From contig PHBK01000003.1 in the NCBI GenBank assembly GCA_002840565.1, positions 47,493-111,492 of the forward strand: DNA of 64,000 nucleotides, written 5' to 3'. A program made the translations under genes and the position numbers. The notes beneath the pieces are model-generated. The model worked only from the letters and a program-made list of their open reading frames with translations, ran no database searches and had not been told where the DNA came from. This DNA is from Deltaproteobacteria bacterium HGW-Deltaproteobacteria-12. Its GTDB lineage: Bacteria; Desulfobacterota; Syntrophia; Syntrophales; Smithellaceae. Below, piece by piece: positions 36,795 to 64,000 of this stretch (its first letter is position 1; each line of letters starts with the position of its first letter).

Positions 36795-36965
36795 TTCTCC
36801 TTTCCCCCTCGGGATTAAAGTAAGTTGAACCACCTCAAAGTATCCTGGCTTGCGGCATCCTACTTTCCACGCCTTCCCGATGTTGTCCATCAGTGGCTAA
36901 ATGTGGATTTCGTTCCGCTTACAGTTGCGGGGCAGCGCCGGTCTCACACCGGCTTCCTTTTTTGG
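36795..36965 (-). promoter_or_regulatory. Cobalamin (B12) riboswitch
   Basis: The minus strand reads ...GGAAGCCGGTGTGAGACCGGCGCTGCCCCGCAACTGTAAGCGG...GCCACTG...GGGAAGGC...GCAAGCCAGGATAC... These are the conserved core and a B12-box-like element. It ends just before the AAGGAG RBS of the receptor. Confidence 0.8.
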
Positions 36966-36974
36966 CGGTTCTTT

Positions 36975-47009: not shown

Positions 47010-47042
47010 CCCTGTTTTTATGCAATATTTGCAGCAACATGT

Positions 47043-48134: not shown

Positions 48135-48146
48135 GGCGCTATCCTG

Positions 48147-48896
48147 CTACCCTTTCATGTAAAAGATATTGGGTTTGGCTCCGGTCTCTTTTTTGAGCAC
48201 CCAGACCGGCTTCTGCAATTGATGAATTAAGTGATACACTCTGTCTTTCGGATTGGCGAGATCGCCGAATACCCGGACATCCGCCGGACAGTGCACCGAG
48301 CAGGCAACGTTTTTCTCTCCCCTGGATAAGCGCTTTGAAAAACAGAAATCGCACTTATCGATGGCACTCTTTTCTTCATTGAAATACCGGGCATTGTAAG
48401 GGCAAGCCACCATGCAAATTTTACAGCCGATGCATTTCTTGTTGTCCATCATTACAATGCCGGTTATTTTATCCTTGTATGTCGCTTTGACGGGACATGC
48501 GCGGACGCAGGGAGGATTGTTGCACTGGTTGCATAGTACCGGAATGAACTCTCTTTTTTGCCCTATTGCCTGCGGCACTTCCCGCTCCAAAACCTTTGTG
48601 CGCCATCCGTAGTCCGGAACGGTGTTGGTGGCAACACAGCCTTTTTCACAGCGGCGGCAGCCGATGCACTGATCCACACGGATCACCATGCTGTAGTGCG
48701 GCTGATAAGGATATTTTTCCGCATAGGTGCCGGATGGGAATAATCTTTCGGCCGCAGAAACGGCGGACACGATGGAACCGCCGGCAAAAATACCGGTGAC
48801 AGCCAGGCCTATTTTCAGGAATTCACGGCGATCCAGTTCGGATATTCTTCCGGATTTTTCCAATATTTTGTCTTTATTTAAAGGCTCAAATATCAT
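48147..48896 (-). CDS. Tat-exported 4x[4Fe-4S] ferredoxin subunit (NrfC/PsrB/HybA type)
   Basis: 'DRREFLKIG' Tat motif and four Cys clusters: 'CIGCRRCEKGC', 'CNQCNNPPC', 'CIGCKICMVAC', 'CDFC'. Confidence 0.85.
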   Translation of the reverse strand: MIFEPLNKDKILEKSGRISELDRREFLKIGLAVTGIFAGGSIVSAVSAAERLFPSGTYAEKYPYQPHYSMVIRVDQCIGCRRCEKGCVATNTVPDYGWRTKVLEREVPQAIGQKREFIPVLCNQCNNPPCVRACPVKATYKDKITGIVMMDNKKCIGCKICMVACPYNARYFNEEKSAIDKCDFCFSKRLSRGEKNVACSVHCPADVRVFGDLANPKDRVYHLIHQLQKPVWVLKKETGAKPNIFYMKG

Positions 48897-50158
48897 AATT
48901 CACTCTCAGCCTTTCCGCTTTCCAAGTCTTCGATGCCCGGCGCTTCGCTAAAACCGTTAAATACCTTCTCCCCGAGCATAAACGCCGCACCGCAAAATCC
49001 CACCCCTCCCAGAGCAACAAGAATTTCTTTCCAGGTAGGCGCATAAGTGTGCAATTGGGAAAATTCCTTGACTCCAAGATCCCAATACAAAGGAACAATC
49101 TGAGCCATAATGACCAGATCCAGGCGCATGAAAAAAATACTGAAAATCATGAGAGCTGCGGCAGTCATCATCAATCCACGCTTCCTGCCAGAAGATCGCC
49201 AGAGCAGAAAAAAAGGAATAATCATGCCGCAGGCCACTTCCAGCACCCAGAAGCTGAAAGCATGCGAGCCGCTGATGGTCTCATGAAGCGTAAGCAGATG
49301 TGTTTCGCCGCCGGTGGTCATGGTAATCAGCTTCCAGACGGTCAAGAAAACAATAGCAGCAATCATCAGCATGGCCAGTTTGCCGACCAGCGCCAATGAC
49401 TTTTCTTCGGCTTCATCCATTTTGGTGTTTCTGATCTTTTGCGCAATAATGCTGAAAAAGATAATGAAAGCACTTCCTGTCATCATGGCCGACAGGATAA
49501 AATAGACCGGCAGAAAGGGGCCATACCAGATATCGCGGCCATGCAGCATGGCAAAGATGCCTCCCAGATTGCTGTGTGCGGCAACGCCGGAGATAACACT
49601 CAGGAATCCGAAAAAGGCGGCAACGCGGTGTGACTCCCGCATCAGCAAAACAAATTCTATCGCCATGAAAATCATATACAGCATATACAGCGCGCCCATC
49701 CACCAGATGTTGGAAGAGAAATTAGGCGATGTAAAAAAGTAAATCAACATCCGGAAGGGATTCTCTATTTCCAGGGCGATCACGAGAAAACCGGATATAA
49801 TTGTAATCAGGGCCAGAAGCACCGACCGTTTGGCAATCGGCAGAAAGTCGCGATTACCGAAGACATGCCCTATGGACGAAACCAGGCAAAGCCCGGTGGA
49901 AGCAACAACAAAGAAAATATACGTGGCAATGAGCAGTGCCAGCGGAATCTCCCGGAAGGTGCCGTAAGAATGAAGGGTGCCCGCTATGAAGATGGAGTAT
50001 ATTCCGGATATAACTCCGGCAATAAGCAGAATGACGAATGCCGTTAAAAGGAATAGATAAACCGGGCCGCCTGATATTACACGGTTTAACGCATCTTTGA
50101 TGCCGGTAATGACGGGCGAATTGACTGTGTTTTCCATGGTGCTACCTTTTCTGGCCAA
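48893..50158 (-). CDS. NrfD/PsrC-like integral membrane quinol-interacting subunit
   Basis: 421 aa, about 10 TM helices. 4-nt overlap with the FeS subunit gene. Confidence 0.8.
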   Translation of the reverse strand: MARKGSTMENTVNSPVITGIKDALNRVISGGPVYLFLLTAFVILLIAGVISGIYSIFIAGTLHSYGTFREIPLALLIATYIFFVVASTGLCLVSSIGHVFGNRDFLPIAKRSVLLALITIISGFLVIALEIENPFRMLIYFFTSPNFSSNIWWMGALYMLYMIFMAIEFVLLMRESHRVAAFFGFLSVISGVAAHSNLGGIFAMLHGRDIWYGPFLPVYFILSAMMTGSAFIIFFSIIAQKIRNTKMDEAEEKSLALVGKLAMLMIAAIVFLTVWKLITMTTGGETHLLTLHETISGSHAFSFWVLEVACGMIIPFFLLWRSSGRKRGLMMTAAALMIFSIFFMRLDLVIMAQIVPLYWDLGVKEFSQLHTYAPTWKEILVALGGVGFCGAAFMLGEKVFNGFSEAPGIEDLESGKAESEL

Positions 50159-50169
50159 ATCCTTTTATA

Positions 50170-50724
50170 TCAGGGCACGATATAGTTAAATTTATGGCAT
50201 TGAGCACAGTAGTTTTCCGACTTTGTATGCTGGTGGTGACAAAGATTGCAATCCAGTTCTGTTCCGTAATGGGGCGACGTGTGCGGATTATGCGGTTTTA
50301 TCTTTGCCGTTTTCTCCGCCAGTTTGGCCGTTGCGCCGTGGCAGGCAATGCACTTGCTCATTTCCACCGGTTCCGGTTTCTTCACTTTACCGTGGCATTG
50401 TTCGCATTTGACGCCTTTAAGAGCGTGCAGATGGCTGCCCGGAATTTTAGCTTTCAGCGTTCCGGCGTTGCCTTCTCCCGGAATGTGACAAACAAGACAA
50501 CCTTCATAAGGCATATCCTTTGTGGCGACGTGATTGTCGGAAAGTACTTTTTTGTCTTTATGGCAGCCGGCGCAATCCCATGCTTTTAATTCAGCTTTTT
50601 TCTCCTTCGTCGCTGCCGCCTTTTTTTCTTTGGGGGCGGCGTACAGACTGACTGTAAAAACCGCAATCAGAAATAAAACAAGTGAAAAGGCAATGAGCAC
50701 CTTGCTTGTATTGTTGTTTTTCAT
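50170..50724 (-). CDS. Hexahaem cytochrome c (flavocytochrome-type tetrahaem core plus two N-terminal haems)
   Basis: Six CxxCH motifs. C-terminal 'CIACHG...LAEKT...NPHTSPHYG..LDCNLCHHQH...YCAQCHKF' resembles the haem domain of Shewanella-type flavocytochrome c. N-terminal signal or anchor. Confidence 0.85.
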   Translation of the reverse strand: MKNNNTSKVLIAFSLVLFLIAVFTVSLYAAPKEKKAAATKEKKAELKAWDCAGCHKDKKVLSDNHVATKDMPYEGCLVCHIPGEGNAGTLKAKIPGSHLHALKGVKCEQCHGKVKKPEPVEMSKCIACHGATAKLAEKTAKIKPHNPHTSPHYGTELDCNLCHHQHTKSENYCAQCHKFNYIVP

Positions 50725-50797
50725 ATTTATCCACCGCTATGGGAATGTGTACCAAGGGACATTGTGATTCTTTTTAAATACATTGTTATTAAAGCAG

Positions 50798-50848
50798 AAA
50801 AAAAAGCATGCGTCAATGGGCTATCTTGATGTTGTCCATTGACGCATG
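50798..50848 (-). terminator. Intrinsic terminator/attenuator between flavoprotein and hexahaem cytochrome genes
   Basis: 13-bp perfect stem (50807-50819 / 50836-50848) followed on the minus strand by an 8-U tract (50798-50805). Confidence 0.7.
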
Positions 50849-50864
50849 AAAGGTTGCGTTAATC

Positions 50865-52442
50865 CTACAGTTTTTCCCTTACAACGTTCTTGCCTGCTTT
50901 GCGCCCAAAGACGACACAGTCTGTCGTGGCATTGCCACCCAGTCGGTTCGAGCCGTGAACGCCCCCCGACACCTCGCCGGCGGCGTAAAGCTTCGGAATC
51001 ACCTCACCGAAGATGTCGATAACCTGCGCATTCTCGTTGATTCGCAGACCGCCCATGCAGTGATGGATCGCTGGCCACTGGGCGACAGCGTAGAAGGGAC
51101 CCTTAACCATCGGGGTCATGGCCTTGGTAATCGGCTTGCCGAATTCGGGATCTTTGCCTTCAGCGAGATAACGGTTGTGCTTCTCGATCGTATCGACCAG
51201 CGCATCTGCGGGAATGCCTATTTTCCCGGCCAACTCGGCGATGCTGTCGGCGACAATAAAACGATTGTGTTTCAAGCCTGTCTCGACTTCTTTGCGGCTG
51301 CCACCTAATTTTTCGATCATCTCATCGCTGAAAATTGTGTAGGTGGGCTTGGCCTGTGGTCCCAGAGCAATCTGCGCAAAACTCACATGATCGCGCCTTG
51401 CCAGTTCGCTGATGAAGCGCTTGCCCTTCTTGGTGACATAAACGATGCCGTTGCCCGGACCGTTGAAAGGATAAAGCGCCGGGCTGTCGAGGATACCCGT
51501 ATCCGGATCGGCATAGGGATACAACTGGATGAAGTTCATCTGCAGAGTATCCGCACCGACAGCCTGGGCGTAGCGGATTGTCTCGCCGGTTGCGCCCCTG
51601 TGGTTGGTGCTTTTCCAATCGCCTGCCAGGTAAGGATAATGATCGCTACGCATTTTGATGTCGCGGCTGAAGCCGCCGGAGGCCAGAATCAGGCCCTTGG
51701 TGATTTTAATATTGGTCACTTTCTTACCCTGTGTGACCTCGACGCCCAGAACGGGGCTTTTCGAATCGGCATCTGCTCTCCAAATCCAGGTCACGGCGTT
51801 GTTGAGGCGGATCTTAGCTCCCCCCTTCTCTGCTATTCGCTTGAGTGCGTCGACATAAATCTTCCCGGAACCGCATGCATGAGAGCGATATGCTGAGTGG
51901 CCACCACCGCGAAGTACTGTCGGGCGAATCACCGCTCCCCCTTCGTCGATCATCCAGTTCAGCGATTCGGTGGCCCCTTCCGCCATGGCCTTGGCCAGTG
52001 CCGGAATGTTGAAGTTGTCGCCCCCTTTTAGGGTGTCCTGCGTGTGGAGCTCGACACTGTCGTCGCCCAGGTTGAGATTCTGGCGATAGTGGAATTTGTC
52101 GTCCCAGGAGTTATATATCCCACCGTTGATGGCGGAGTTGCCACCGATAACGGGCATCTTCTCCAGGATAACGACCTTCGCTCCGGCTTTGGCAGCTTCC
52201 GCGGCGGCTGCCCATCCGGCAAAGCCGGAGCCTACGATGACCACATCGATGGTTTCGTCCCATTTCTTGGGCAGGGGACGCTTGGCTGCTTCCGCAGAAC
52301 CCGGGAGAGCCATATTCAACGCCAAGCCGCTAACCACAGTTGCGGCGCCAACTGCCGCCGCTCCCTTCAGAAAGGAACGGCGATTTACACCTTTTACTTC
52401 TTCATGCAGATTGTTTTTGATTTCTTGTTGATTTGTGTCCAT
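50865..52442 (-). CDS. Tat-exported FAD-dependent reductase, flavocytochrome-c/fumarate-reductase superfamily (paralogue 1)
   Basis: 'NRRSFLKGAAAVG' Tat motif, 'DVVIVGSGFAG' and 'GGNS' FAD motifs, 'HHCMGG', 'NRLGGNA'. The ATG at 52442 has a GGAGG RBS. The track TTG start is at 52454. Confidence 0.85.
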   Translation of the reverse strand: MDTNQQEIKNNLHEEVKGVNRRSFLKGAAAVGAATVVSGLALNMALPGSAEAAKRPLPKKWDETIDVVIVGSGFAGWAAAAEAAKAGAKVVILEKMPVIGGNSAINGGIYNSWDDKFHYRQNLNLGDDSVELHTQDTLKGGDNFNIPALAKAMAEGATESLNWMIDEGGAVIRPTVLRGGGHSAYRSHACGSGKIYVDALKRIAEKGGAKIRLNNAVTWIWRADADSKSPVLGVEVTQGKKVTNIKITKGLILASGGFSRDIKMRSDHYPYLAGDWKSTNHRGATGETIRYAQAVGADTLQMNFIQLYPYADPDTGILDSPALYPFNGPGNGIVYVTKKGKRFISELARRDHVSFAQIALGPQAKPTYTIFSDEMIEKLGGSRKEVETGLKHNRFIVADSIAELAGKIGIPADALVDTIEKHNRYLAEGKDPEFGKPITKAMTPMVKGPFYAVAQWPAIHHCMGGLRINENAQVIDIFGEVIPKLYAAGEVSGGVHGSNRLGGNATTDCVVFGRKAGKNVVREKL

Positions 52443-52687
52443 TGCAGCCTCCAAAAAAAATTTGAATTATTCCGTCAGATGCCGGCAGATAAATTTGCCC
52501 CACAGTTCTGGAAGTGGGCAGATGCGACAACAGAGTAATGATTAATTGGTTTTATGGTGTCTTTCGGCCATGTGTCCTGACGTAACAAATGGGTGCCCAC
52601 ATTTATTGACTGATTTATTATCATCAATATGAAACCACGTAAACGGTTATTTAACAGGTAGATATCGGGTATTGTTATATACCCGTT

Positions 52688-54091
52688 TCATGGGCGAGGT
52701 GCTTCGCTGGCTGCATTTATCCCGGCGATGCGCCCGAAAATCAAACATTCGGAAATAGAGTTGCTGCCCAGACGGCTGGCGCCATGAACACCCCCGATGA
52801 TTTCGCCTGCTGCATAAAAACGGCCGATGGGCGAATTGTCGTCAATCCGGATCACCTGTGCTTGAGTATTGATCTGGATTCCGCCCATGCAGTAGTGAAC
52901 TTTGGAAATCAGGCGGATGCAGTAGTAGGGAGGGTGTTTAATGGGATGCAAGTCTCGGGGAATCGGCTTGCCAAACTTGTCATCTTTCCCCTGTTCGATT
53001 ACAGTATTATAAGAATCGATCGTGTGTTTCAATGGAAGAAGTGGCACCTGGTTGGCCATGGCCAGTTCTTCGAGCGAACCGTATTTCCGGACGACACCGC
53101 GCTTGAGACACTGATCCAGCGTGTAGGCTTGATGCACGCCCATCTCATCCACGATGGCAATGGCTTCGTTTCCCGCGCTGAGCATGGCGTCCACCAGAAG
53201 TTTGCGATCCGCTTGTTCGTTGACAAAACGCGATACTGTTTGCAGATCAATCAAAATGCCGTAGGGAAACCCCGCCAGCATGGAGAACATCGATCCTACC
53301 CCGAAGCCTTCTTCATCGCGGGACGCCCATGGTCCGAGCTGGATCATCGACAACTGCACGGGCGTCGCGCCGGCTTTCAGCGCCAGAATAAGGCTTTCGG
53401 CCGTTGCCCCCTTGTGATTGGTGCATTCAATATTTTCCGAAAGCGAGGGGTTTTGGATGGCCCGGAATGCCTTGTCCTGACTGAATCCCCCGGTGGCCAT
53501 GACCACCGCCCGTCTGGCGCGGATGCGCTTGGGCGCACCGCTTTCGCGATTGGGGAAAATATAATTCTCGCGGACCTCCACGCCTTCGATGTCTCCGTGT
53601 TCATCGGCGATGAGCTGCGTTAGACAAGTCTTCAGACGGATCGGGATTTCCATTTCCCGCAAACGAACCAGCATCGGCCGGATAATGCCGGCCCCTGATG
53701 TGTTGGCCGTGCTGTGAGAACGCGGCACGGAATGTCCGCCCAGATGGCTGAGATTGAGTTTATACTCCACACCCAGTTCGTTGATCGTCCAGAGGAGCGT
53801 TTCGGTGGATCGTTCGGCCACGATACGGGCCAGATCGCGGTGGTTGAAGTTTTGACCGGCGGCCAGCATGTCAGCAAGCATCAGTTCCGGCGAATCTTTA
53901 ATATTTTCGTCAGCCTGCAGAGGAGATCCAGCCGCGGCGAAAAGGCCTCCACTGATTGTGGAGTTGCCGCCGGGCACGGCCATTTTTTCCAGAACCACCA
54001 CGGACGAGCAGAGCTTGCGAGCCTCGATAGCTGCCGCCAGTCCTGCAAAACCAGAACCGATAATCACCACATCATATTCTTCATGCCACAT
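52688..54091 (-). CDS. Cytoplasmic (no signal peptide) FAD-dependent reductase, same superfamily (paralogue 2)
   Basis: It starts directly at 'MWHEEYDVVIIGSGFAG'. 'HYCMGG' and 'SRLGSNS' are present. GGGAGA RBS. Confidence 0.8.
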   Translation of the reverse strand: MWHEEYDVVIIGSGFAGLAAAIEARKLCSSVVVLEKMAVPGGNSTISGGLFAAAGSPLQADENIKDSPELMLADMLAAGQNFNHRDLARIVAERSTETLLWTINELGVEYKLNLSHLGGHSVPRSHSTANTSGAGIIRPMLVRLREMEIPIRLKTCLTQLIADEHGDIEGVEVRENYIFPNRESGAPKRIRARRAVVMATGGFSQDKAFRAIQNPSLSENIECTNHKGATAESLILALKAGATPVQLSMIQLGPWASRDEEGFGVGSMFSMLAGFPYGILIDLQTVSRFVNEQADRKLLVDAMLSAGNEAIAIVDEMGVHQAYTLDQCLKRGVVRKYGSLEELAMANQVPLLPLKHTIDSYNTVIEQGKDDKFGKPIPRDLHPIKHPPYYCIRLISKVHYCMGGIQINTQAQVIRIDDNSPIGRFYAAGEIIGGVHGASRLGSNSISECLIFGRIAGINAASEAPRP

Positions 54092-54164
54092 TTGTTTCTC
54101 CCTATGCTTTTAACGGACTCTTTACTTTTCATGGCCGTTTTTTTTCGCCTTGTCTTCACTTTGA

Positions 54165-55442
54165 TCATAAAACACGATTCATCAGGAAAGCATGCAGGTT
54201 CAGCTTCTCACCGCTCAGTCCCAGCTTTTTGCGGATATTCTTGCGATGCGTCTGAACCGTATCATAGGACAGCTTCATGGTCGTGCAGATATCCTTGCTC
54301 GAACAACCGGCTTGAACCAAACGGCAGACTTCGATTTCCGTTTTCGTAAGCTTCAGAAGCCCGGCGTCCAGTTCTTTTTCGGAGCCCGTCGTCAATCTAA
54401 TCAGTTGCTCTTCCAGAATCGCCAGGTAGCTCCTGCGGGTGCCCGCTTCGGAGGCGGCTTCGATTTTTTTCAAGCCCGGCAAAAGTGATGTCTTGATTTT
54501 CGAGGCCAACCGGCTTTCACGATCCTTGCGGTCCTCCTCGATGCTTTTCATGACAGTTTTCAGGGTGAGATTCATTTCCTCCACCTGCTGTTTTTCCTGC
54601 CGAAGCTGCATCTCCATCGCTTTCTGCTGGGTGTCGTCCCGAACGATCAGCGACCAGTAAAGCCTGCTGTCAAGATCGCTACGAGCCAACGTCACAGTGG
54701 CCGGAAAGGTTTTGCCGTCCACATACAGAAAGGTTACTTCAACATGCCGGCGCTGGCCATCTATCAAATCCTCCATATGCCGGATTAAAAGGGCGGCGTC
54801 CGCCTCTTCCAGCAGAGACCGTATATTCGATCCAACGATATTCTGAAACTGCATGCCGAAAATTTCGCAGGCTTGCTGGTTGACCTGGACAATTTCAAGG
54901 TCTTCGTCAACCAGCAGAATCCCTTCACCCACGGACATAAAAATCGCACGAAGCAACTTGTCCGATGTCGCCGGATTGGCCGACCTTTGCTCCGGCACCA
55001 CCATGCCCGGCGTCTGCCAGCCGGCAACAATGTTCATCTCGGTGCAATCCGCGACACGCCGAAGTTTCAAAATCATGTCGGTTCGCGCTGCTGCTGAGAC
55101 ATCCGCTCCGGCAAGTCTTTCCTCAACGCAGGAAATCATGGTTTTGAAATAACCGAGAAAAAACTCCAGATCCATGCCGCGCTTCTGCCCGAAACGGGCT
55201 TCGTCGGCCAGCGGCTGCACCAGGCAAAATGCATCGCGCTCGCTTTCCGCAGACATAGCGGTCTTTGCATCCCGGCAGCACAATTCCAGCGCCGCAAGCA
55301 GGCCGGTGAATCTCCGGAGGAAATCTTCGCGGCCGGTCATACGCGGATTGGCCTGTCCGGCCCTGTGCATCCGACGCAGCCATTCTTCAAATATATCCGA
55401 CTGGGCTTCCCTGAATTGATTGAGCAGCTGTTTCGTATCCAT
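54165..55442 (-). CDS. PAS-domain LuxR/FixJ-type HTH transcriptional regulator (no receiver domain)
   Basis: C-terminal 'LTKTEIEVCRLV..G.S.KDI...M.LS..TVQTHRKNIRKKLG'. Central PAS-like 'GEGILLVDEDLEIVQVNQQACEIFG'. Coiled-coil linker. Confidence 0.8.
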   Translation of the reverse strand: MDTKQLLNQFREAQSDIFEEWLRRMHRAGQANPRMTGREDFLRRFTGLLAALELCCRDAKTAMSAESERDAFCLVQPLADEARFGQKRGMDLEFFLGYFKTMISCVEERLAGADVSAAARTDMILKLRRVADCTEMNIVAGWQTPGMVVPEQRSANPATSDKLLRAIFMSVGEGILLVDEDLEIVQVNQQACEIFGMQFQNIVGSNIRSLLEEADAALLIRHMEDLIDGQRRHVEVTFLYVDGKTFPATVTLARSDLDSRLYWSLIVRDDTQQKAMEMQLRQEKQQVEEMNLTLKTVMKSIEEDRKDRESRLASKIKTSLLPGLKKIEAASEAGTRRSYLAILEEQLIRLTTGSEKELDAGLLKLTKTEIEVCRLVQAGCSSKDICTTMKLSYDTVQTHRKNIRKKLGLSGEKLNLHAFLMNRVL

Positions 55443-55450
55443 GTTTTATT

Positions 55451-55762
55451 TCAATTGAGTGAGTGCAGATGGCTGCCCGGAATCTTAGCTGTCAGCGTTT
55501 CGGCATTGCCTTTTCCCGGAATGTGGCAAACAAGACAACCTTCATAGGGCATATCCTTTGTGGCGACGTGATTGTCGAAAATCATCCTTTTGTCTTTATG
55601 GCAGCCGGCACAATCCCAGGGTTTCACTTCAGCTTTTTTCTCCTTGGTCGCTGCCGCCTTTTTTTCTTTGGGGGCGGCGTACAGACTGCCTGTAAAAACC
55701 GCCACTAGAAATAAAACAAGTGAAAAGGCAATGAGCACCTTGATTGTATTCTTGTTTTTCAT
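55451..55762 (-). pseudogene. Truncated duplicate of the hexahaem cytochrome gene (first two haem sites only)
   Basis: The 103-aa product is nearly identical to residues 1-100 of the 50170-50724 product. DNA similarity ends abruptly near 55462, 8 nt upstream of the LuxR-gene start. Confidence 0.7.
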
Positions 55763-56452
55763 ATTTATTCTCCAGTCAATGCAGTCGCCCCTCAGTACTG
55801 TACAGGAATTGTTTGTACCGCCTCAGGACGGTAAAAAATCAAACATCAATGGACAAAGGCAATTAACCAATGCTTTAAACGACAGAGAGTTCAATTTGTC
55901 TGAATAAAAGCAGGCTGCTTTCTTTATTTGCCCGTCCCAATCATTAATATGCTTTTGTCTAAATGCTTGTCAAGAATATATGCCAACAGTCCGATGTTTG
56001 AGGTCCGATTCTCTTTATTGACAGCAGCGACAATAATGAAAGCAAACGGAAATCCTCTTGGTTGCATTATGTATATGTTATAATTGCCATTTAATGGATA
56101 TGGCGTTCCTTGATGGGAGTTTTTTAGTGATTGCTGCCGGACAAAGATTGTGATATGGTTAAAAAAAATTGTTATAATGAATCATCTCCATCTGAAACCA
56201 TTTTGTAACCTGCATTCCCAATTCGCCATTGCTATACAGGATTGTATCATCTGTCGAGCGCAGCAAACGCACAAAAATCATTTTCCAGCCATTATTATAC
56301 ACAAAAGCATTATTTTGATTCAGCTGTTTCGTCAAGAAACAGCTTTGCTGAAATTAAACATTCCTGAACTGTTAAAATCACTGACAATTATCCGGAGAAA
56401 AAAATAACGACAGTCTGATATAAAAAATCAACAAAATATAAGGAGAAAAACA

Positions 56453-58021
56453 ATGACAGAGGACAAGAAACTTACCAATGCACTAAGCAGAAGAAATTTT
56501 TTAAAGACAGCCGGAGGGGCCGCGGCAGTAGCTGGACTGGCAACCAGTGGTTTGGCTTTAACGCCTTGGACAGCGGAAGCGGCATGCACGACAATGCCCA
56601 AGAAGTGGGATGAGACTTATGATGTTGTGGTTATAGGCAGCGGATTTGCGGGACTTGCCGCCGCTTATGAAGCGAAAAAAGCCGGGGCGTCTGTTGTCAT
56701 TCTGGAAAAAATGCGGACACCGGGAGGAAATTCCATTATCAACGGCGGTGTCGTTTCCGCAGCCGGATCGCCGCTGCAAGAAAAAGAAGGCATCAAGGAT
56801 TCGCCGAAGCTGTTATTGAAAGATATGCTGGCAGCAGGTCTTAACCTGAACCACATCGAACTGGCCCGGATGGTGGCTAATGAGTCAAACAACACGGTCC
56901 AGTGGACCATCAGCGAACTAGGTGTCAAATACAAAGATAGAACTACACAGGAAGGCGGTCATTCTGTCCCCCGGATGTACACCACTTACAATTCGAGCGG
57001 TTCAGCCATAGTTCAGCAGCAATTGGCTAAACTTAAAGAATTAGGTTTGGAGCCGAAAACACAAAGCTGCCTGACCCAAATATACCGTGATGCTGACGGG
57101 CGGGTCAAAGGTGTGCAGATCCGTGAAAAATACGTTTTCCCGAATGCCGACAGTGGAAAGATTAAGAATATTAAAGCCAGAAAGGCTGTTGTCATGGCAT
57201 CAGGCGGTTTCGGGAACGATGTGGCGTTCCGCACGATTCAAGACCCCCGCCTGACCGATGAATTCCAAAGCACCAATCAGCCCGGTTCCACAGCGGAGGC
57301 CCTGCGTGAGGCCTTCCGCATCGGCTGTACACCCCTGCAGCTTTCCTGGATTCAGCTCGGCCCCTGGACAAGTCCGGATGAAAAAGGCATGGGAATCGGC
57401 CCGACTTTCGCCGGGGGATGCACCATGTACGGGCTTTGGATAGATCCCAGGACAGGCAAGCGTTTTGTCAATGAACTGGCCGACAGGAAGATCCGCGCCG
57501 ATGCTATCATCAATGCCGGCAATAACTGTATCGCCTTTACTGATGCCAGAGGTTACGCGATCTTTAAGCAATTTTTAGGAGAGCCTTTAATGCTGAAAAT
57601 GCAGGAAAGAGGCGTTGTTAAAAAATATGACACCCTGGAACAGATGGCGGCGGCATACAATTGTCCCGTCGAACCACTCAAAGCAACAATTGATAAATGG
57701 AATAAGGCTGTTTTAGCGGGAAAAGACGAAGAATGGGGCAGGTATTTACAGAAAGATCAGAAGCCACTCGGTGCCGGGCCCTACTATGTGTCGCGGCTCA
57801 GCCCCAAAGTACATCACTGCATGGGCGGCGTGAACATCAACGCTCAAGCGCAGGCATTGGACGTAATGACAGACAAACCTATTGCCGGACTCTATGCAGC
57901 CGGTGAAGTCACAGGCGGCGTACATGGCGCCGTCCGTCTGGGCAGCTGCGCGACGCTGGATTGTTTAATTTTCGGCCGCATCGCCGGTAAAAACGCGGCG
58001 GCAGAAAAAAAATGGAGCTGA
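56453..58021 (+). CDS. Tat-exported FAD-dependent reductase (paralogue 3)
   Basis: 'SRRNFLKTAGGAAAVAG', 'DVVVIGSGFAG', 'HHCMGG', 'VRLGS'. AAGGAGA RBS. Confidence 0.85.
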   Translation: MTEDKKLTNALSRRNFLKTAGGAAAVAGLATSGLALTPWTAEAACTTMPKKWDETYDVVVIGSGFAGLAAAYEAKKAGASVVILEKMRTPGGNSIINGGVVSAAGSPLQEKEGIKDSPKLLLKDMLAAGLNLNHIELARMVANESNNTVQWTISELGVKYKDRTTQEGGHSVPRMYTTYNSSGSAIVQQQLAKLKELGLEPKTQSCLTQIYRDADGRVKGVQIREKYVFPNADSGKIKNIKARKAVVMASGGFGNDVAFRTIQDPRLTDEFQSTNQPGSTAEALREAFRIGCTPLQLSWIQLGPWTSPDEKGMGIGPTFAGGCTMYGLWIDPRTGKRFVNELADRKIRADAIINAGNNCIAFTDARGYAIFKQFLGEPLMLKMQERGVVKKYDTLEQMAAAYNCPVEPLKATIDKWNKAVLAGKDEEWGRYLQKDQKPLGAGPYYVSRLSPKVHHCMGGVNINAQAQALDVMTDKPIAGLYAAGEVTGGVHGAVRLGSCATLDCLIFGRIAGKNAAAEKKWS

Positions 58022-58045
58022 TCGATCATTTGATTCTGTGAACTA

Positions 58046-58085
58046 AAAGAGCTCCTTCCCTGTGCGGGTTGGAGCTCTTTTTTTG
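58046..58085 (+). terminator. Bidirectional intrinsic terminator between convergent reductase and rhodanese genes
   Basis: 10-bp stem AAAGAGCTCC/GGAGCTCTTT flanked by A- and T-tracts. Confidence 0.75.
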
Positions 58086-58114
58086 ATCATCAGTTTTTAT
58101 TTGTTTTGCAAAAA

Positions 58115-59008
58115 CTAGGGCTCAAAAGGTGCGGCCGGATCCGCCAGCCATTCCATCGAGGAGCCGTCATAAACTTTCACATCTTTATATCCCAGCATAT
58201 CCGTCATAATTAATGCCCAAGATGTGCAGGTCTTACCGGTATCGCAATAAACAATGATTTCCCTGGCCAAATCGTTTCCCGCAACCTTATCGGCGAGAGC
58301 GGCCAAAACGGCTTTATCCTTGTATAAACCTTCAGGAGTATACAGAGCCCCGACAGGAAGGTTAACAGCGCCCTTGATTCGTCCCAATTTAGGTACGAAA
58401 GCAAGTTTTTCCTTTCCCTCATAAAAAGCCGGGGCGCGGGTGTCGATGATTATAGCCTTGCCCAGTTTGCTCATCACATAAGCCTTGTCCACATAAAGTT
58501 TATCGGTTATTAAAGCCTTAAATGATTTTGCCTTCGCTTTCACCATGTCTTGTGACAATGGCTTGCCTTCTTTTACCCACTGATTCTGCCCGCCATTGAG
58601 GATGGCTGCATTGGGCACTCCCAGGTACTTCAACGTCCAGGCAACGCGGCTCATGTCAAACTGATCGGGAACTTTGTCTGTTTTGCCGACGATTACGACC
58701 AGAGAATCTTTATCGATACCTGCACTCCCGATAACATCGGCAAGGTCATCAATGGGCGGCAGTTCGTTCAGCAGATAACCTTTTTTAATGGCCCATGATC
58801 CATAAAATACATTAACTGCCCCCGGAATATGGCCGGCCTTGTATTCTTCCACTTTACGCACATCCACGATGACTAAGTTTGCATTTCCCAGATTTTTTTG
58901 GAGCCAGTCCGTGGAGACAATGGGATCGATGCCTTTGGCCAGCGCTGTCAGCGGCAGAAGTAATATAATTGCAATTATTACTGATTTTAACCATCTTGCA
59001 TTTCTCAT
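58115..59008 (-). CDS. Periplasmic tandem-rhodanese sulfurtransferase
   Basis: Signal peptide 'LLLPLTALAKG'. Two rhodanese repeats. Only the second has an active-site loop, 'YCDTGKT'. Confidence 0.85.
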   Translation of the reverse strand: MRNARWLKSVIIAIILLLPLTALAKGIDPIVSTDWLQKNLGNANLVIVDVRKVEEYKAGHIPGAVNVFYGSWAIKKGYLLNELPPIDDLADVIGSAGIDKDSLVVIVGKTDKVPDQFDMSRVAWTLKYLGVPNAAILNGGQNQWVKEGKPLSQDMVKAKAKSFKALITDKLYVDKAYVMSKLGKAIIIDTRAPAFYEGKEKLAFVPKLGRIKGAVNLPVGALYTPEGLYKDKAVLAALADKVAGNDLAREIIVYCDTGKTCTSWALIMTDMLGYKDVKVYDGSSMEWLADPAAPFEP

Positions 59009-59022
59009 AGAATCCTCCTAAG

Positions 59023-60306
59023 TTATTTTTTAAGCGGTTTAATGTTGAAAATCAAGCCTTCATTGGCTTTAGAACCTCCTTCTTTGATAACCATTTCTTT
59101 ATTCAGAAAACCTTCTTTCGCCACATGGCAGGAATCACAGGAACGCGTTCTCGACGTTCGTTTTTTGATGTTGTGCACCGCTGAATCCCAATAATTGGGC
59201 AACGCGTCAAAGTTATCCATTTTTATTCCGTGCGCATCAAAAGTGTTCTTTGTAGTGGGAATAAGGCGGAGCGTGGTCAAGGTCTTTTTGTCCCGCGGAT
59301 TCAAACCCAAAATAAAACCCGGCTTTGCTTTCGATCCTGTAGTTGTGTGACAATTGGAACATTGGCGATATTCACCCGAAGAATGGCAGCCGTAACAGGT
59401 TACCTTGTCGATATGCATCTGATGGGATGTTTTAGCCGCGGGAGTCTTTTCGCTGCCCGGCTTGTGGCAGTCCCGGCAGGCCGGACGGTCTTTAACCTGA
59501 TTTTTGGACGCATAAGCCTTGCCGTCGCCGTGAAATTCCATCTTTTTGTGGCAATCCATGCATAACATGCCCTTCTGATAATGAACATCCGGCTCGCCGC
59601 CGTATTCTCCTGTGTATTCAGGGTAGACCCTGCCACCGTGGCAGGACGAACAGGTTTTGCCTTCGTGTTTTTTGACAAATTTATGGCCTGAAATCAGCCC
59701 GGTGGATATTCCGGAAACGGCTGGAGATTTAACGTGGCAATCACCGCAGGAGGCATGGCAACTGCGGCACGACTTTTCAAAGACTTTCTCATCAAATTTT
59801 TTTAAGTCTTCCTTGGAAAAACGGGGCATTACACCGTTTCTCTGGCCGGCGGTCGTGTAATGGAGAGACTTTGTGTATTTGTCGGTAATTGTTTTATGGC
59901 ACGTCGCGCAGTTGGCCATGTTGTCTGAAGGTCTTTTGACCAGATCTTTGTGCGCCTCTTCCTTTTTTAAAACCTTATCGTTTCCCTGATGACATTGGGG
60001 GCAGGAGAGGATAAAGTGCTGATCTTTTTTCAGAATATCACGATCGACAACATACCCTTTATACATTTCTTCCGCCCGGACCGGCGGAGGTGCACCCGCT
60101 CACCCTTCCTCCTCGCCCGCAGGCACAGGTAGCGGTTTATGAAGTGACTTCATCAAAGATTCATTCGTATGACATGTTACACAACTGCTGGGGGGGGCAG
60201 CAGCACTTATAGAACTGTAAAGCAGCAAAGAAATAACGATAATGAATAAACAGTAATATTTGTGCTGGCTTTTCACAAACCCTCTCCAATTTAAATTTGA
60301 ATTCAA
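59023..60306 (-). CDS. Undecahaem cytochrome c interrupted by one in-frame UGA at 60100-60102 (candidate selenocysteine codon, otherwise a pseudogene)
   Basis: ORF 60100-60306 carries the signal peptide and the first CxxCH. ORF 59023-60066 carries 10 CxxCH but no signal peptide. Both are in the same frame, separated only by TGA plus 33 nt. A SECIS-like hairpin follows the TGA. Confidence 0.5.
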
Positions 60307-60449
60307 ATTAACAAATTAGCGATGCCGTGTCAAACTTATTTACCAATTATTAAGTGAAATCGAATAGCTCAAAATTTGTGCAATTTGCCTTCGGTTTTGA
60401 TGATGGATAGGGATGGAATTAAATAAACAGAGTGTCGACTCAATTATGA

Positions 60450-60614
60450 CGATCGCGCAAAAAGTCCGTCACACCTGTTAAAACCGGTGTCCAGTTTTTG
60501 TAAGTCGTTGGGATTTCTGGATTCCGGCTTTCGTAACCTGATAACCTGAAGGTCACGCGAGGTCACAAGACCGGAATGACGATTATGAGGATTTTTCGAC
60601 TTTTTACGGCTCCG
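60450..60614. repeat. 165-bp MITE-like element flanked by a perfect 10-bp direct repeat (TCAATTATGA at 60440-60449 and 60615-60624)
   Basis: Sub-terminal inverted motifs GCAAAAAGTC (60457-60466) and GACTTTTTAC (60598-60607) each lie 7 nt from the direct repeat. The core at 60534-60574 is the reverse complement of 11999-12039. Confidence 0.7.
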
Positions 60615-60621
60615 TCAATTA

Positions 60622-60669
60622 TGAAACAGAAATTAAACAAGCGGAAGACGAATAATCTTCCGCTTGTTT
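60622..60669 (-). terminator. Intrinsic terminator after the second hexahaem cytochrome gene
   Basis: 14-bp perfect stem (60635-60648 / 60656-60669) followed on the minus strand by AATTTCTGTTT. Confidence 0.6.
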
Positions 60670-60696
60670 AACATGTTTTAATAAGTTACCGCCGCC

Positions 60697-61224
60697 TTAC
60701 GGTGTTTTAAACTCGAATTTATGACACTGCGCACAATAATTTTCCGATTTGGCGTGCTGATGGTGGCATAGATTACAATCCAGTTCTGTTCCGTAATGGG
60801 GCGACGTGTGCGGATTGGTCGGCTTCACATCTTTTGTTTTTTCCGCAAGCTTTGCCGTTGCACCATGGCAGGCAACACATTGTTCCATGGTCAGAGCTTC
60901 AGGCTTCTTGGTCTTGCCGTGGCATTTGAGGCAAGTTACATCTGCCAGTTGATGAACATGGCTGCCTGGCAATTTGCCGATCAGGTTGAGATTATCTTTT
61001 GTGTGGCAGGCCTTGCAGGCTTCCCAATTCATGGCTTTGGTATCGGGATGCTTATCCGGCAGCATCTTTGCTTTAAGATGGCAGGCGGCGCAGTCTCCGC
61101 TCTTGGCTTTGGACGGCTCCAGTTTGGGGGCAGCCCAAAGAGCCTGACCGAGTATAAACACCATGATAATGCTGAATAAAACAGCGCCCGCTTTCGTCTT
61201 TTTTTCAAACAGATGCTTTTTCAT
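60697..61224 (-). CDS. Hexahaem cytochrome c (paralogue of 50170-50724)
   Basis: Six CxxCH motifs. The C-terminal half is almost identical to the paralogue ('CHGATAKLAEKT...NPHTSPHYGTELDCNLCHHQH'). Confidence 0.85.
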   Translation of the reverse strand: MKKHLFEKKTKAGAVLFSIIMVFILGQALWAAPKLEPSKAKSGDCAACHLKAKMLPDKHPDTKAMNWEACKACHTKDNLNLIGKLPGSHVHQLADVTCLKCHGKTKKPEALTMEQCVACHGATAKLAEKTKDVKPTNPHTSPHYGTELDCNLCHHQHAKSENYCAQCHKFEFKTP

Positions 61225-61253
61225 ATCCCTCCAAAATAATTCTTTCCAAAAGC

Positions 61254-61295
61254 CGGATAACCGGGAACCCGCTCAAACAGTCTCCCGGTTATCCG
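61254..61295 (-). promoter_or_regulatory. 13-bp perfect hairpin between flavoprotein and hexahaem cytochrome genes (weak terminator/attenuator or processing site)
   Basis: CGGATAACCGGGA (61254-61266) pairs with TCCCGGTTATCCG (61283-61295). Only a short U-run (GCUUUUGG) follows on the minus strand. Confidence 0.5.
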
Positions 61296-61302
61296 AAAAA
61301 AG

Positions 61303-62856
61303 TTAACTCCAGGCCTTTTCGCCCGCGGCATTTTTGCCGGCAATACGGCCGAAGACAACGCAATCAGCCATGGCTACTCCACCCAGACGAACAGCTCCGT
61401 GGACGCCGCCGGTCACTTCGCCCGCTGCGTAAAGACCTTTAACGGGCTTTAAATCAAAACCGGTGACCTGGGCGTTTTTGTCGATAACCAATCCCCCCAT
61501 GGTATGATGAACCTTGGGCCAGAGTCTGGCGGCATAAAAAGGTGGAACTGTTGTCGGTTTCGCGTCGGGGAAAATCATACAGTCAAAGTCGGGGTCTTTC
61601 TTTTTTTCTACATAGGAGTTCCATTTGGCAATTTCATCCAGGAAAGTGGCCACCGGCATATTGTATTCTTTGGCCAGCGCTTCCAGGGTGTCGAATTTCT
61701 TAATGGCTCCTGCTTCAATGCCTTTTTGCAGCATGCTGGCCATAACCTGCTTGGTTACGGCGTAGGAATCACCCATAATGAGAACCGGCTCACCGATGGC
61801 AACGATGGCATCGGCTCTTTCTTTCCTGTTTCCCGTTTCCTTGAAAAATCTCTTACCCGTTTTGGGGTTGATCATCAGGCCGTGGCCGACCAGTCTTTCA
61901 CAGAAAAGGGGAACATAGCCGAAGCCTTTTTCATCCGGACTGGTCCAAGGACCAAGCTGAATCCAGTCCATCTGCACATCCATGGCGCCGGCACGGCACG
62001 CTGCCATCAATGCTTCTCCGGTGGCCCCGGGCTGGTTAGTGGAACCGAACCTGTCCGTAAGACGGGGATCGTGTATCTGGCGCAGCTGAAGATCCTCGGA
62101 AAAACCACCCGAACTCAGCACGACAGCTTTTTTTGCCTTGATAAAAGCTGTCTTGCCCGTGCCTTCATTGGGGAATTTATAATCCTTGCGCACTTCGACG
62201 CCGACAATCCGGCCATCCTTGTTGGACAGGAATTTTACCAGTTTGGTGCGCACCTGCAGCTTCACGCCAAGCTCCTTGGCCTTTGCCAGCATCTTGTTGA
62301 CCAGTTCGGAGCCGGAAGAGTTAACCGTTCCGTGGGTTCTCCGGACAGAGTGTCCGCCATGGAAGTTAAGTCTCGTGTACTTGGCGCCGATATAGGATTC
62401 ACTCCATTCAAAGGCATCTTTGGCGCCATAAGCAACCATTTTGGCCAGCTCGGGATGATTCAGATAAGCGCCTGCTTTAAGCATATCTTTTAACATGAGC
62501 TCAGCAGAGTCTTTAACATCTTTTTCCTCCTGCATCTTTGTTCCGGGGGCGCTAAAATCACCGCCGTTGATGATGGAGTTGCCGCCGTGAACCGGCATTT
62601 TTTCCAGGACCACAACGTTGGCCCCCGCATTTTTTGCCTCGATGGCGGCGGCGAGTCCGGCAAATCCGCTGCCGATGACGACAACATCATACGTTTCATC
62701 CCACTTCTTGGGCAGAGCCGTGCATGCCGCTTCCGCTGTCCAGGGTGTTAGAGCCATCCCGGTGGTGGCCAGACCGGCAACGGCTGCGGCCCCTCCGGCT
62801 GTTTTTAAGAAACTTCGCCTGCTGAGTGTTTTTTCTGTAGTGTCATCTTTTTTCAT
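61303..62856 (-). CDS. Tat-exported FAD-dependent reductase (paralogue 4)
   Basis: 'SRRSFLKTAGGAAAVAG', 'DVVVIGSGFAG', 'HHTMGG', 'VRLGG'. The ATG at 62856 is better spaced from the GGGAGG RBS than the track start at 62862. Confidence 0.85.
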   Translation of the reverse strand: MKKDDTTEKTLSRRSFLKTAGGAAAVAGLATTGMALTPWTAEAACTALPKKWDETYDVVVIGSGFAGLAAAIEAKNAGANVVVLEKMPVHGGNSIINGGDFSAPGTKMQEEKDVKDSAELMLKDMLKAGAYLNHPELAKMVAYGAKDAFEWSESYIGAKYTRLNFHGGHSVRRTHGTVNSSGSELVNKMLAKAKELGVKLQVRTKLVKFLSNKDGRIVGVEVRKDYKFPNEGTGKTAFIKAKKAVVLSSGGFSEDLQLRQIHDPRLTDRFGSTNQPGATGEALMAACRAGAMDVQMDWIQLGPWTSPDEKGFGYVPLFCERLVGHGLMINPKTGKRFFKETGNRKERADAIVAIGEPVLIMGDSYAVTKQVMASMLQKGIEAGAIKKFDTLEALAKEYNMPVATFLDEIAKWNSYVEKKKDPDFDCMIFPDAKPTTVPPFYAARLWPKVHHTMGGLVIDKNAQVTGFDLKPVKGLYAAGEVTGGVHGAVRLGGVAMADCVVFGRIAGKNAAGEKAWS

Positions 62857-63197
62857 ATTCATCCTCCCATATGTTTAGATTTTTTAAAAAAAATATCTGA
62901 AGACCTAAGAAAGTTAAGACTGGACGCCGATTCTTTTTTGAACATAGAAAACAAAAACTTATGATAATGGTGGACGATAAAAAAATAATCGCTTTCTTTG
63001 CTGCTCTATATACACCTCCACAATAATCCCTGTCAACGGCAATTCTCCAGACAGAAAAACACTCTTCTGGTTGTTGAAGTAATCTATATTAATATTAACT
63101 ATTTATGTTCTTTAAAGATAAGCTAGTGTCCTGAGTTATAAATACATTGACAAATAATATTATTTCTGTAATATGTTGGGGAAAAAGGAGAATCGAC

Positions 63198-64000
63198 ATG
63201 AGTCGTCCACTTGCTCCCCTCACAGTGACCGCAGAAGAAAGAGAAACCCTGCTGCGGTGGGCACGAAGGCCTAAAACAGCACAAGCCCTTGCCTGCAGGG
63301 CGAGGATCGTTCTTGCCTGTGCAGACGGCAAAACGAACGGTGACGCAGCACAGATTCTTCACATCACGCGACAGACGATTGGCAAGTGGCGTAGTCGCTT
63401 CGTCTTGAATCGTCTTGACGGCTTGCTGGATGAACCTAGACCAGGTGCCCCGAGAGCAATCAGTGATGAGGATGTTGAGCGCGTTATCACCATGACGTTG
63501 GAATCGTCCCCGAAAGATGCGACGCACTGGAGTACCCGTTCGATGGCGGCGGCATCTGGCCTGAGCCAGAGTGCGATAAGTCGCATTTGGCGTGCCTTTG
63601 CTTTGCAGCCCCACCGTTCCGAAACCTTCAAGCTTTCTACAGATCCGCTTTTTGTTGAGAAGGTCCGGGATATCGTGGGTTTGTATCTCAATCCGCCTGA
63701 GCGTGCTCTGGTCTTGTGCGTTGATGAGAAGTCTCAGATTCAGGCGTTGGATCGCACCCAGCCTATTCTCCCGATGCGGCCCGGGCAGATAGAACGACGC
63801 ACCCATGACTACAGCCGACATGGTACGACGTCCCTGTTTGCCGCTCTGGATGTGAAAACCGGCGAGGTAATCGGACAATGCCATCGGAGACATCGGTCCG
63901 TCGAGTTTCGGAAGTTCTTGGATAAGATCGACGATGCTGTCCCTGAATCGTTGGATGTCCACCTGATCTTGGACAACTACGGCACTCACAAGACATCTGC
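63198..64000 (+). mobile_element. IS630-family transposase gene, 5' part (runs off the window; absent from the ORF track)
   Basis: Hand translation from the ATG at 63198 (AAGGAG RBS) gives [68 protein letters not shown]...DEPRPGAPR...HWSTRS...[12 protein letters not shown]...[19 protein letters not shown]...LDNYGTHKT. This is the typical IS630/Tc1-mariner-like HTH plus DDE layout. Confidence 0.85.

Follow-up and report, generated by a model that had tools for sequence, protein, structure and literature searches.

The closest described counterpart of the gene considered here is MccSep/ExtKL (GSU2937-2936) of Geobacter sulfurreducens, a five-haem selenoprotein that reduces polysulfide and selenite (PMC13510729). 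Its selenocysteine (Sec) has been shown by mass spectrometry, and its structure has been determined at 1.75 Å (PMC13510729; PDB 9wt8; NCBIfam NF040886). The Sec residue lies in a C-terminal immunoglobulin-like (Ig-like) domain, and the protein also has a strictly conserved haem-ligating Cys, C239, and an Arg, R83, near Sec (PMC13510729). A 2026 selenoproteome review additionally lists a GSU2204-family CXXCH protein (NF041027) and an Otr-family octahaem cytochrome (TIGR04315) (PMC13188914). The present analysis concerns an 11-haem cytochrome c gene that contains an in-frame UGA and is followed by a rhodanese gene, both on the minus strand of a 64,000-nt stretch of DNA (hereafter, the window) from Deltaproteobacteria bacterium HGW-Deltaproteobacteria-12 (Smithellaceae; GCA_002840565.1, contig PHBK01000003.1, positions 47,493 to 111,492). 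An earlier examination of the DNA letters without database searches (the sequence-only reading) had proposed that this UGA encodes Sec and had known of no described Sec-containing multihaem cytochrome; the latter statement is outdated in view of MccSep/ExtKL (PMC13510729) and of the GSU2204 and Otr families (PMC13188914). Our comparison of related loci suggests that the gene represents an unannotated, widely conserved selenoprotein family of Syntrophales, in which an 11-haem cytochrome c with the sequence context GEG-U-AGAPPPV shares an operon with a periplasmic rhodanese, and we hold the decoding of its UGA as Sec to be very likely.

The window cytochrome and MccSep are alike in several respects. 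Both are periplasmic multihaem c-type cytochromes from Desulfobacterota, their genes are annotated as two open reading frames (ORFs) split by UGA, and a stem-loop resembling a selenocysteine insertion sequence (SECIS) lies directly past the UGA in both. Sec is located in a Gly-X/Pro-rich loop (D-G-U-P-T-P in MccSep and G-E-G-U-A-G-A-P-P-P in the window), and each protein has a periplasmic rhodanese-like partner, namely ExtH for MccSep and the product of the gene at 58115-59008 for the window cytochrome. However, the latter has 11 haems instead of five, its Sec (residue 59) sits near the N-terminus, in the segment that links haems 1 and 2, whereas that of MccSep is part of a C-terminal Ig-like domain, and the window protein has no conserved Cys outside the CxxCH motifs in the role of the haem-ligating C239. 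Also unlike MccSep, the Sec-less close relatives of the window family carry Ala, Ser, Arg or Tyr instead of Cys, and the rhodanese gene is directly adjacent, without the ExtI/ExtJ porin genes of the MccSep locus. The GSU2204 (NF041027) and TIGR04315 families share with the window family the c-type multihaem character, the anaerobic hosts, a single Sec and their discovery by UGA readthrough analysis, but differ from it in haem number, in the GEG-U-AGAPPPV context and in the operon partner.

No similarity to MccSep was detected, as NF040886 gave no match at E ≤ 0.01 and the chains 9wt8/9wt9, which the searched copy of the PDB contains, gave none at E ≤ 1; NF041027 and TIGR04315 likewise had no match to the window protein at E ≤ 0.01, and a distant homologue (P0131) scored 30 bits against TIGR04315, whose cutoff is 375. 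With the family models and the PDB chains of MccSep unmatched, membership in the MccSep, Otr and GSU2204 families was rejected. No curated NCBIfam model reached its cutoff for the window cytochrome or its distant relatives, literature searches retrieved no description of the family, and it is missing from both the 2026 review table (PMC13188914) and NCBIfam. By analogy, the cytochrome might work as MccSep does with ExtH, while being an unrelated protein outside that family.

Layout of the gene and its product

The following features of the cytochrome gene were assigned.

59023-60276, minus strand: complete coding sequence (GTG start, TAA stop) of the proposed 11-haem cytochrome c selenoprotein; its 417 codons include 11 CxxCH motifs and, at position 59, the Sec codon
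60281-60288, minus strand: ribosome-binding site (RBS) GGAGAGGG, 5' of the signal peptide, read from the sequence
60202-60276, minus strand: Sec-type signal peptide MKSQHKYYCLFIIVISLLLYSSISA, followed by A, read from the sequence with the cleavage site judged by eye
60100-60102, minus strand: in-frame UGA, proposed Sec residue 59, in the context G-E-E-E-G-U-A-G-A-P-P-P-V
60067-60099, minus strand: eleven codons, AGAPPPVRAEE, from the UGA to the called ATG, translated within the same protein, as judged by codon conservation
60071-60088, minus strand: SECIS-like hairpin, stem UCCGCC/GGCGGA (60088-60083 with 60076-60071), loop GGUCCG (60082-60077)

The TGA at 60102-60100 is in frame between an upstream ORF, which encodes a signal peptide and one CxxCH, and a downstream ORF (60066-59023), which encodes ten CxxCH. 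The sequence and its translation agree with the layout given in the sequence-only reading, including the gap of 33 nt between the TGA and the downstream ATG. Its single joined gene also stood, whereas its 427-residue product starting from a TTG at 60306 did not, because the RBS GGAGAGGG precedes the GTG at 60276 and homologues begin with MK...; this GTG is most likely the true start. The homologues have hydrophobic N-termini equivalent to the window signal peptide. Matches obtained using tblastn in 80 loci cover query residues ~1-417 in one frame, and full-length homologues were also aligned.

The product shows the general characteristics of multihaem cytochromes c, with 11 CxxCH motifs, a signal peptide and Pfam matches that all exceed their cutoffs (PF14522, 2.4e-12; PF22113, 1.5e-11; PF14537, 1.9e-10). 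Conservation is complete or almost complete for the 11 CxxCH motifs, for nine His outside them and for two Met, and every Cys of the mature window protein belongs to a CxxCH motif. Together, these nine His and two Met could provide ligands for all 11 haems.

Conservation of the UGA and translation beyond it

A scan of species-representative genomes yielded 354 loci, and codon-level counts rest on the best 80 of these, nearly all of which were from metagenome-assembled genomes of Syntrophales (Smithella, Smithellaceae and Syntrophus). The homologous codon was TGA at 76 of 78 species-level loci (distinct GTDB species), CGA at one and GCA at one, and neither TAA nor TAG occurred. The sequence-only reading had raised the question of whether homologues run through this column; they do so in that the TGA is retained at these 76 loci between the conserved flanks GEG and AGAPPPV. 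An in-frame UGA thus occupies a single orthologous column with coding conservation on both sides, which is the pattern expected of a selenoprotein gene. Three independent assemblies contain the window allele with an identical TGA, and the arrangement is shared by a cultured isolate, Syntrophus gentianae (GCA_900109885.1). A protein search retrieved 534 relatives, most of which are 345-351 residues long and start exactly at the start of the downstream ORF of the window; a few have 407-420 residues and cross the UGA junction, and eight further independent clusters of short ORFs terminate exactly at ...GEG.

Among the 76 UGA-containing sequences, Ala+1, Gly+2, Pro+5 and Val+7 (numbered from the UGA) are invariant, and the four codons GGG, GGC, GGA and GGT are used almost evenly for Gly+2. 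An invariant Gly encoded by all four of its codons is a mark of purifying selection on a translated peptide. The codons past the UGA are thus under purifying selection at the protein level, which means that ribosomes read through. In contrast, the called ATG (position +12) is Met in only 56 of the 76 sequences and absent from 20, and it is therefore not a conserved initiation site.

The SECIS-like hairpin

The RNA past the codon reads UGA-GCGGGUGCACC-UCCGCC-GGUCCG-GGCGGA-AG, in which a 6-bp stem begins 11 nt and an apical loop 17 nt from the UGA. With the U of UGA as position 1, the pairs are U15-A32, C16-G31, C17-G30, G18-C29, C19-G28 and C20-G27, the loop comprises nucleotides 21-26, and the loop dinucleotide G22-U23 is invariant across orthologues. 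The consensus of bacterial SECIS (bSECIS) elements specifies a loop of 3-9 nt, an upper stem of 4-16 bp, G in the first two loop positions, a distance of 16-37 nt from UGA to loop and a minimum free energy (MFE) of ≤ -7.5 kcal/mol (PMC13188914 Fig. 2A). The window hairpin lies within these ranges, with a 6-nt loop, a 6-bp stem, a 17-nt spacing and an MFE of -14.7. The GC stem with a GGUC loop 17 nt past the UGA, as described in the sequence-only reading, was confirmed, with the U-A pair counted among its 6 bp. When the bSECIS rules were applied strictly, 52 of the 76 true sites passed, whereas the pass rate at the remaining in-frame positions of these genes (26,156 positions) was 10.8%; most of the sites that failed belonged to a 'GGCCGG' subgroup, which has a hairpin with a one-nucleotide bulge at the same position.

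Comparison across orthologues indicated that the stem itself is maintained. Standard pairs were found in 93.1% of cells, compared with ≤ 62.7% when the partners were slid by 1-3 columns, and the covariation score of the hairpin (0.060) was above those of 500/500 shuffles. A compensatory change from C19-G28 to G19-C28 was found in four sequences, and a change from G-C to A-U was seen in an alternative bulged register. Among the 89 conserved four-fold columns of the gene, third-position entropy was lowest at U15 (Pro+4, CCT in 71/74) and G18 (Pro+5, CCG in 70/76) and third lowest at the G immediately 5' of the UGA, while the codons of the spacer and the loop vary freely. Relative codon entropy was 0.57 in the SECIS region and 0.84 elsewhere (p = 0.0013). 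This synonymous-site constraint on the stem nucleotides is the strongest RNA-level evidence.

The archetypal bacterial element is the SECIS of Escherichia coli fdhF, which like the window hairpin is part of the coding sequence and follows closely after the UGA. The two hairpins have in common an 11-nt spacer, a short upper stem-loop and a loop that starts with GGUC and carries the critical G-U at its positions 2-3. The window hairpin differs in that its 5' arm lacks the bulged U (in a subset of homologues, a C bulges from the 3' arm), its loop comprises 6 nt rather than 4 nt, and an extended lower stem is missing.

Identity of the inserted residue and alternative explanations

Taken together, the conservation of the UGA, the selection downstream of it, the constraint on the stem, the pairing of Sec with Cys among relatives and the Sec-proficient lineage favour the residue proposed in the sequence-only reading, and the UGA at 60102-60100 very probably encodes selenocysteine (Sec59). 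Distant homologues were collected by an exhaustive search of representatives with the N-terminal 125 residues, which yielded full-length relatives at 25-36% identity. At least 9-12 of these have Cys in the Sec column, within the motif G-C-G-G-x-x-P, both in a MAFFT alignment and in an independent profile hidden Markov model (HMM) alignment, and Cys is the commonest residue of the column in the latter. The Sec/Cys pair that is typical of selenoprotein families was thus found, in distant homologues only. Regarding the lineage, Syntrophus aciditrophicus is reported to encode 19 selenoproteins, among them SelD but no cytochrome (PMC1794560 Table 3), which is in line with the Sec-rich lineage invoked in the sequence-only reading; judged from lineage only, the host would possess the Sec machinery.

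Six homologues with a sense codon other than Cys were found; the sequence-only reading had named such homologues as a point that would tell against Sec. The Sec reading nevertheless stands, because these variants are rare, their hairpin or motif has often decayed and they have no adjacent rhodanese. The stem is disrupted in four of the six and the AGAPPP motif is lost in two; the other two keep an intact hairpin. Besides Sec59, only G215, R216, P219 and I339 combine conservation in ≥ 93% of the UGA-type sequences with a change in three or more of the six sense variants. G215 and R216 are present in 76/76 and P219 in 75-76/76 of the UGA-type sequences, each differs in three of the six sense variants, and the trio (nt ~59620-59634, minus strand) directly follows the haem-6 motif C209xxCH213. 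This covariation makes the trio candidate partners of Sec59 and hints that Sec59 might work beside haem 6 together with an Arg, comparable to R83 near the Sec of MccSep.

Apart from the cytochrome, no plausible TGA-joined gene was seen in the window; a scan for TGA-joined ORFs in the locus flanks was swamped by noise in GC-rich DNA and was not used. On the contig of an Arg variant (P0098; L085, 13-1222), a gene for the large subunit of a NiFeSe-hydrogenase was called as overlapping pieces of 293 and 115 residues, which could reflect a Sec-encoding UGA or a frameshift.

Several observations weigh against the Sec reading. In close homologues without the UGA, the residue is Ala, Ser, Arg or Tyr and in no case Cys, which would be odd for a catalytic Sec. 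Neither the 64-kb window nor the flanking DNA of the 60 loci scanned (L001-L060) yielded selA, selB, selC, selD or a tRNA-Sec. Regarding the hairpin, the stem contains a one-nucleotide bulge or a C-C mismatch in 24 of the 76 sequences, true covariation is sparse, at one pair in four sequences, and the nucleotide conservation is partly due to the conserved peptide AGAPPPV, which is kept in some sense-codon homologues. The fold of the single 71-nt sequence was no stabler than dinucleotide shuffles (z = +0.41), the consensus that RNAalifold derived from the 76 sequences was a weak alternative structure without the hairpin, and Rfam yielded no SECIS family either at the gathering threshold (whole window) or at E ≤ 10 (59950-60200). 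The Rfam models of bacterial SECIS presumably cover few lineages, and we take this null result to be weak negative evidence. As the isolated fold and the Rfam result are unimpressive, the case rests on the comparative evidence.

Readthrough without selenium would account for the same gene arrangement if a near-cognate tRNA (Trp, Arg or Cys) decoded the UGA, independently of a SECIS or with stimulation by the hairpin; in a variant, the UGA would be a leaky, regulated terminator that sets the ratio of a monohaem peptide to the 11-haem protein. The lack of an Rfam SECIS match, and of sel genes in the window and locus flanks, is compatible with such readthrough, but hairpin geometry and the G-U of the loop fit the bSECIS consensus, and the lineage is rich in selenoproteins. 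Similarly, the tolerance of Ala, Ser, Arg or Tyr in close homologues means that the residue is not structurally essential, and CGA and TCA are one step from UGA; nevertheless, 76 species keep UGA and never use UAG or UAA, the commonest residue in this column of the distant homologues is Cys, in which sulfur takes the place of selenium, and the rhodanese is linked to the UGA form and not to the sense form. We know of no bacterial precedent for efficient near-cognate readthrough of UGA as a conserved route to a major respiratory protein. Both variants together are accordingly considered quite improbable.

Even less probable is a split or dead gene, in which the UGA terminates translation and leaves an exported monohaem peptide and a decaying or cytoplasmic ten-haem ORF. 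Every public gene call does split the locus, giving a 345-351-residue 'cytochrome c3 family protein' and short upstream fragments. However, a split at the same codon would have to persist in 76 species at 60-90% protein identity with the 11 CxxCH, nine His and two Met kept, and purifying selection acts at the amino acid level on the 11 codons that separate the UGA from the ATG, which itself is missing from 20/76 sequences. Haem attachment by the Ccs system, to which the ResB/CcsA-like ORFs at 44740-47009 would belong, is periplasmic. As pointed out in the sequence-only reading, the downstream ORF lacks a signal peptide and yet needs this periplasmic attachment, and all 11 CxxCH are conserved nonetheless. 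Of the two options that had been put forward, one gene read through UGA or a dead gene, the TGA at 76/78 loci and the downstream selection are in favour of one gene; pseudogene decay was excluded by the UGA shared by 76 species, the coding selection and the conserved CxxCH, His and Met. A sequencing or assembly error, or a reassigned code (UGA as Trp or Gly, tables 4/25), deserves almost no credence. Two catalogue proteins, P0062 (L083) and P0069 (L084), do show Trp in the Sec column, but the DNA has TGA in both, and the gene callers evidently switched to a table with UGA as Trp on short contigs. Such mistranslation can hide selenoproteins and mislead analyses of Sec/Cys columns. About 16 ordinary ORFs in the window end in TGA, which indicates the standard code without reassignment; codes 4/25 were rejected on these grounds, and a sequencing error was rejected by the identical TGA in the three independent assemblies.

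Rhodanese partner and proposed function

Two further features delimit the proposed transcription unit.

58115-59008, minus strand: periplasmic tandem-domain rhodanese with a signal peptide, the domain-2 loop C-D-T-G-K-T and its own RBS
60632-60672, both strands: terminator-like hairpin with an 18-bp perfect stem and a T-run, found by a consensus scan, function putative

The rhodanese gene starts 14 nt past the stop codon of the cytochrome gene, and the arrangement indicates that the two genes are co-transcribed as one operon. An upstream tetrahaem cytochrome gene is set apart from the selenocytochrome gene by the hairpin at 60632-60672, which suggests that the selenocytochrome and rhodanese genes are transcribed as a separate unit. 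The product of 58115-59008 has the features of a rhodanese, matching PF00581 at 6.1e-34 in two stretches, and falls below the equivalog cutoffs of ExtH (74.8 vs 200 bits) and SseA (98.8 vs 250 bits). A rhodanese gene lies directly downstream at 58 of 75 UGA-type loci but at none of the six sense-type loci (Fisher p = 3e-4, without correction for phylogeny), and immediately upstream at a few more UGA-type loci. Among the distant homologues, the Cys-type P0170 is followed by a rhodanese gene, and a truncated, putative rhodanese gene after P0136 opens with a rhodanese-like motif.

If the UGA is decoded as Sec, the hairpin would act as a bacterial SECIS that brings SelB-GTP-Sec-tRNA(Sec) (GTP, guanosine triphosphate) to the ribosome, which would insert Sec and run on through AGAPPPVRAEE into the ten-haem body. 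The N-terminal signal peptide would export the full chain, and haems would then be attached at all 11 CxxCH motifs. We tentatively propose that the cytochrome could be a terminal reductase of sulfane sulfur (polysulfide or rhodanese persulfide) or of selenium oxyanions, which is possible rather than probable. Sec59, on a flexible Gly/Pro-rich loop, would attack the substrate or a rhodanese persulfide to form an Se-S(Se) adduct, which the haem chain would reduce, probably near haem 6, where G215-R216-P219 co-vary with Sec; the electrons would come from the neighbouring quinol-oxidising module of NrfD, 4Fe-4S protein and cytochrome c7. This assignment draws on gene context and analogy, which tells against it, as does the AlphaFold2 model, in which the mean predicted local distance difference test (pLDDT) score is 72 and that of the Sec59 loop is < 50, giving no structural placement of Sec near a haem. 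A Foldseek search of the model against the PDB returned no useful match (best E = 3.7).

Since His and Met could suffice for all 11 haems (nine and two conserved residues, respectively), Sec is likelier to be a free nucleophile than a haem ligand, and a role of Sec59 as the axial selenolate ligand of one c-type haem is very unlikely. The proposed reductase has partial analogues elsewhere. In Wolinella succinogenes, a periplasmic rhodanese-type carrier (Sud) feeds polysulfide reductase (Psr), and in TsdA and SoxAX a chalcogen nucleophile lies beside a c-type haem, both as proposed here (see also the discussion in PMC13510729). However, Psr is a molybdoenzyme rather than a cytochrome, TsdA and SoxAX lack Sec and rely on a Cys that ligates the haem, and no homology to any of them was detected. 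In its most specific form, the proposal would make the protein a second, independently evolved Sec-dependent multihaem chalcogen reductase without a haem-ligating Cys of the MccSep type, in which Sec59 is the sole nucleophile and receives sulfane sulfur directly from the rhodanese; we regard this form as speculative and, as a whole, unlikely.

Genomic neighbourhood

The cytochrome and rhodanese genes lie in a dense periplasmic respiratory island (44740-62862), which contains the following other genes.

44740-47009: ResB/CcsA-like ORFs, recognised by inspection only
47043-48134: c7-type multihaem cytochrome
48147-48896: 4Fe-4S protein
48893-50158: NrfD-type membrane subunit
50170-50724 and 60697-61224: small c3-type cytochromes
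50865-52454, 52688-54091, 56453-58021 and 61303-62862: four paralogous FAD_binding_2 flavoproteins, three with twin-arginine translocation (Tat)-type signals
54165-55442: PAS-LuxR regulator

The pair of a flavoprotein and a tetrahaem cytochrome is found upstream of the selenocytochrome gene at many related loci. Within the island, a 103-residue ORF (55451-55762, minus strand) is near-identical over its first ~40 residues to the 184-residue c3-type cytochrome at 50170-50724 (minus strand), the shared N-terminus being MKN.NT.KVLIAFSLVLFL.AVFT.SLYAAPKEKKAAATK, and looks like a truncated paralogue derived from a local duplication. Elsewhere in the window, a cobalamin riboswitch (36820-37002, minus strand; Rfam RF00174, 96.9 bits) lies just upstream of a 689-residue ORF (34720-36789, minus strand) that has an N-terminus like that of an outer membrane receptor and is followed by ORFs resembling ABC transporters; this region is probably a B12 uptake operon. 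At the window edge, a 288-residue ORF (63123-63989, minus strand) is overlapped by several long alternative ORFs and is unlike its respiratory neighbours; it may be a mobile-element gene or a degenerate gene.

Implications

At least 350 loci in species-representative genomes and hundreds of catalogue proteins of this family have been deposited as N-terminally truncated sequences without a signal peptide, under names such as 'cytochrome c3 family protein' or 'hypothetical protein'. Recognition of the Sec codon would restore a complete, exported 11-haem protein and add a family to the prokaryotic selenoproteome. Considered together with MccSep, the combination of Sec, a haem chain and a rhodanese suggests a recurrent, convergent solution for the reduction of S-S and Se-S bonds, and the absence of a Cys partner here would constrain mechanistic models. 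The family is present in the cultured Syntrophus gentianae, and a Geobacter expression system exists for MccSep; the proposal is therefore experimentally addressable.

Smithella and Syntrophus are key syntrophic degraders of alkanes, fatty acids and benzoate in methanogenic systems. If the cytochrome is indeed an independently evolved chalcogen reductase, its near-universal occurrence in these genera would point to a periplasmic respiratory sink for sulfur or selenium, and supposedly obligate syntrophs would have an alternative to interspecies transfer of H2 or formate. Such a sink, together with the selenium requirement that it entails, would then have been overlooked in the physiology of Smithella and Syntrophus.

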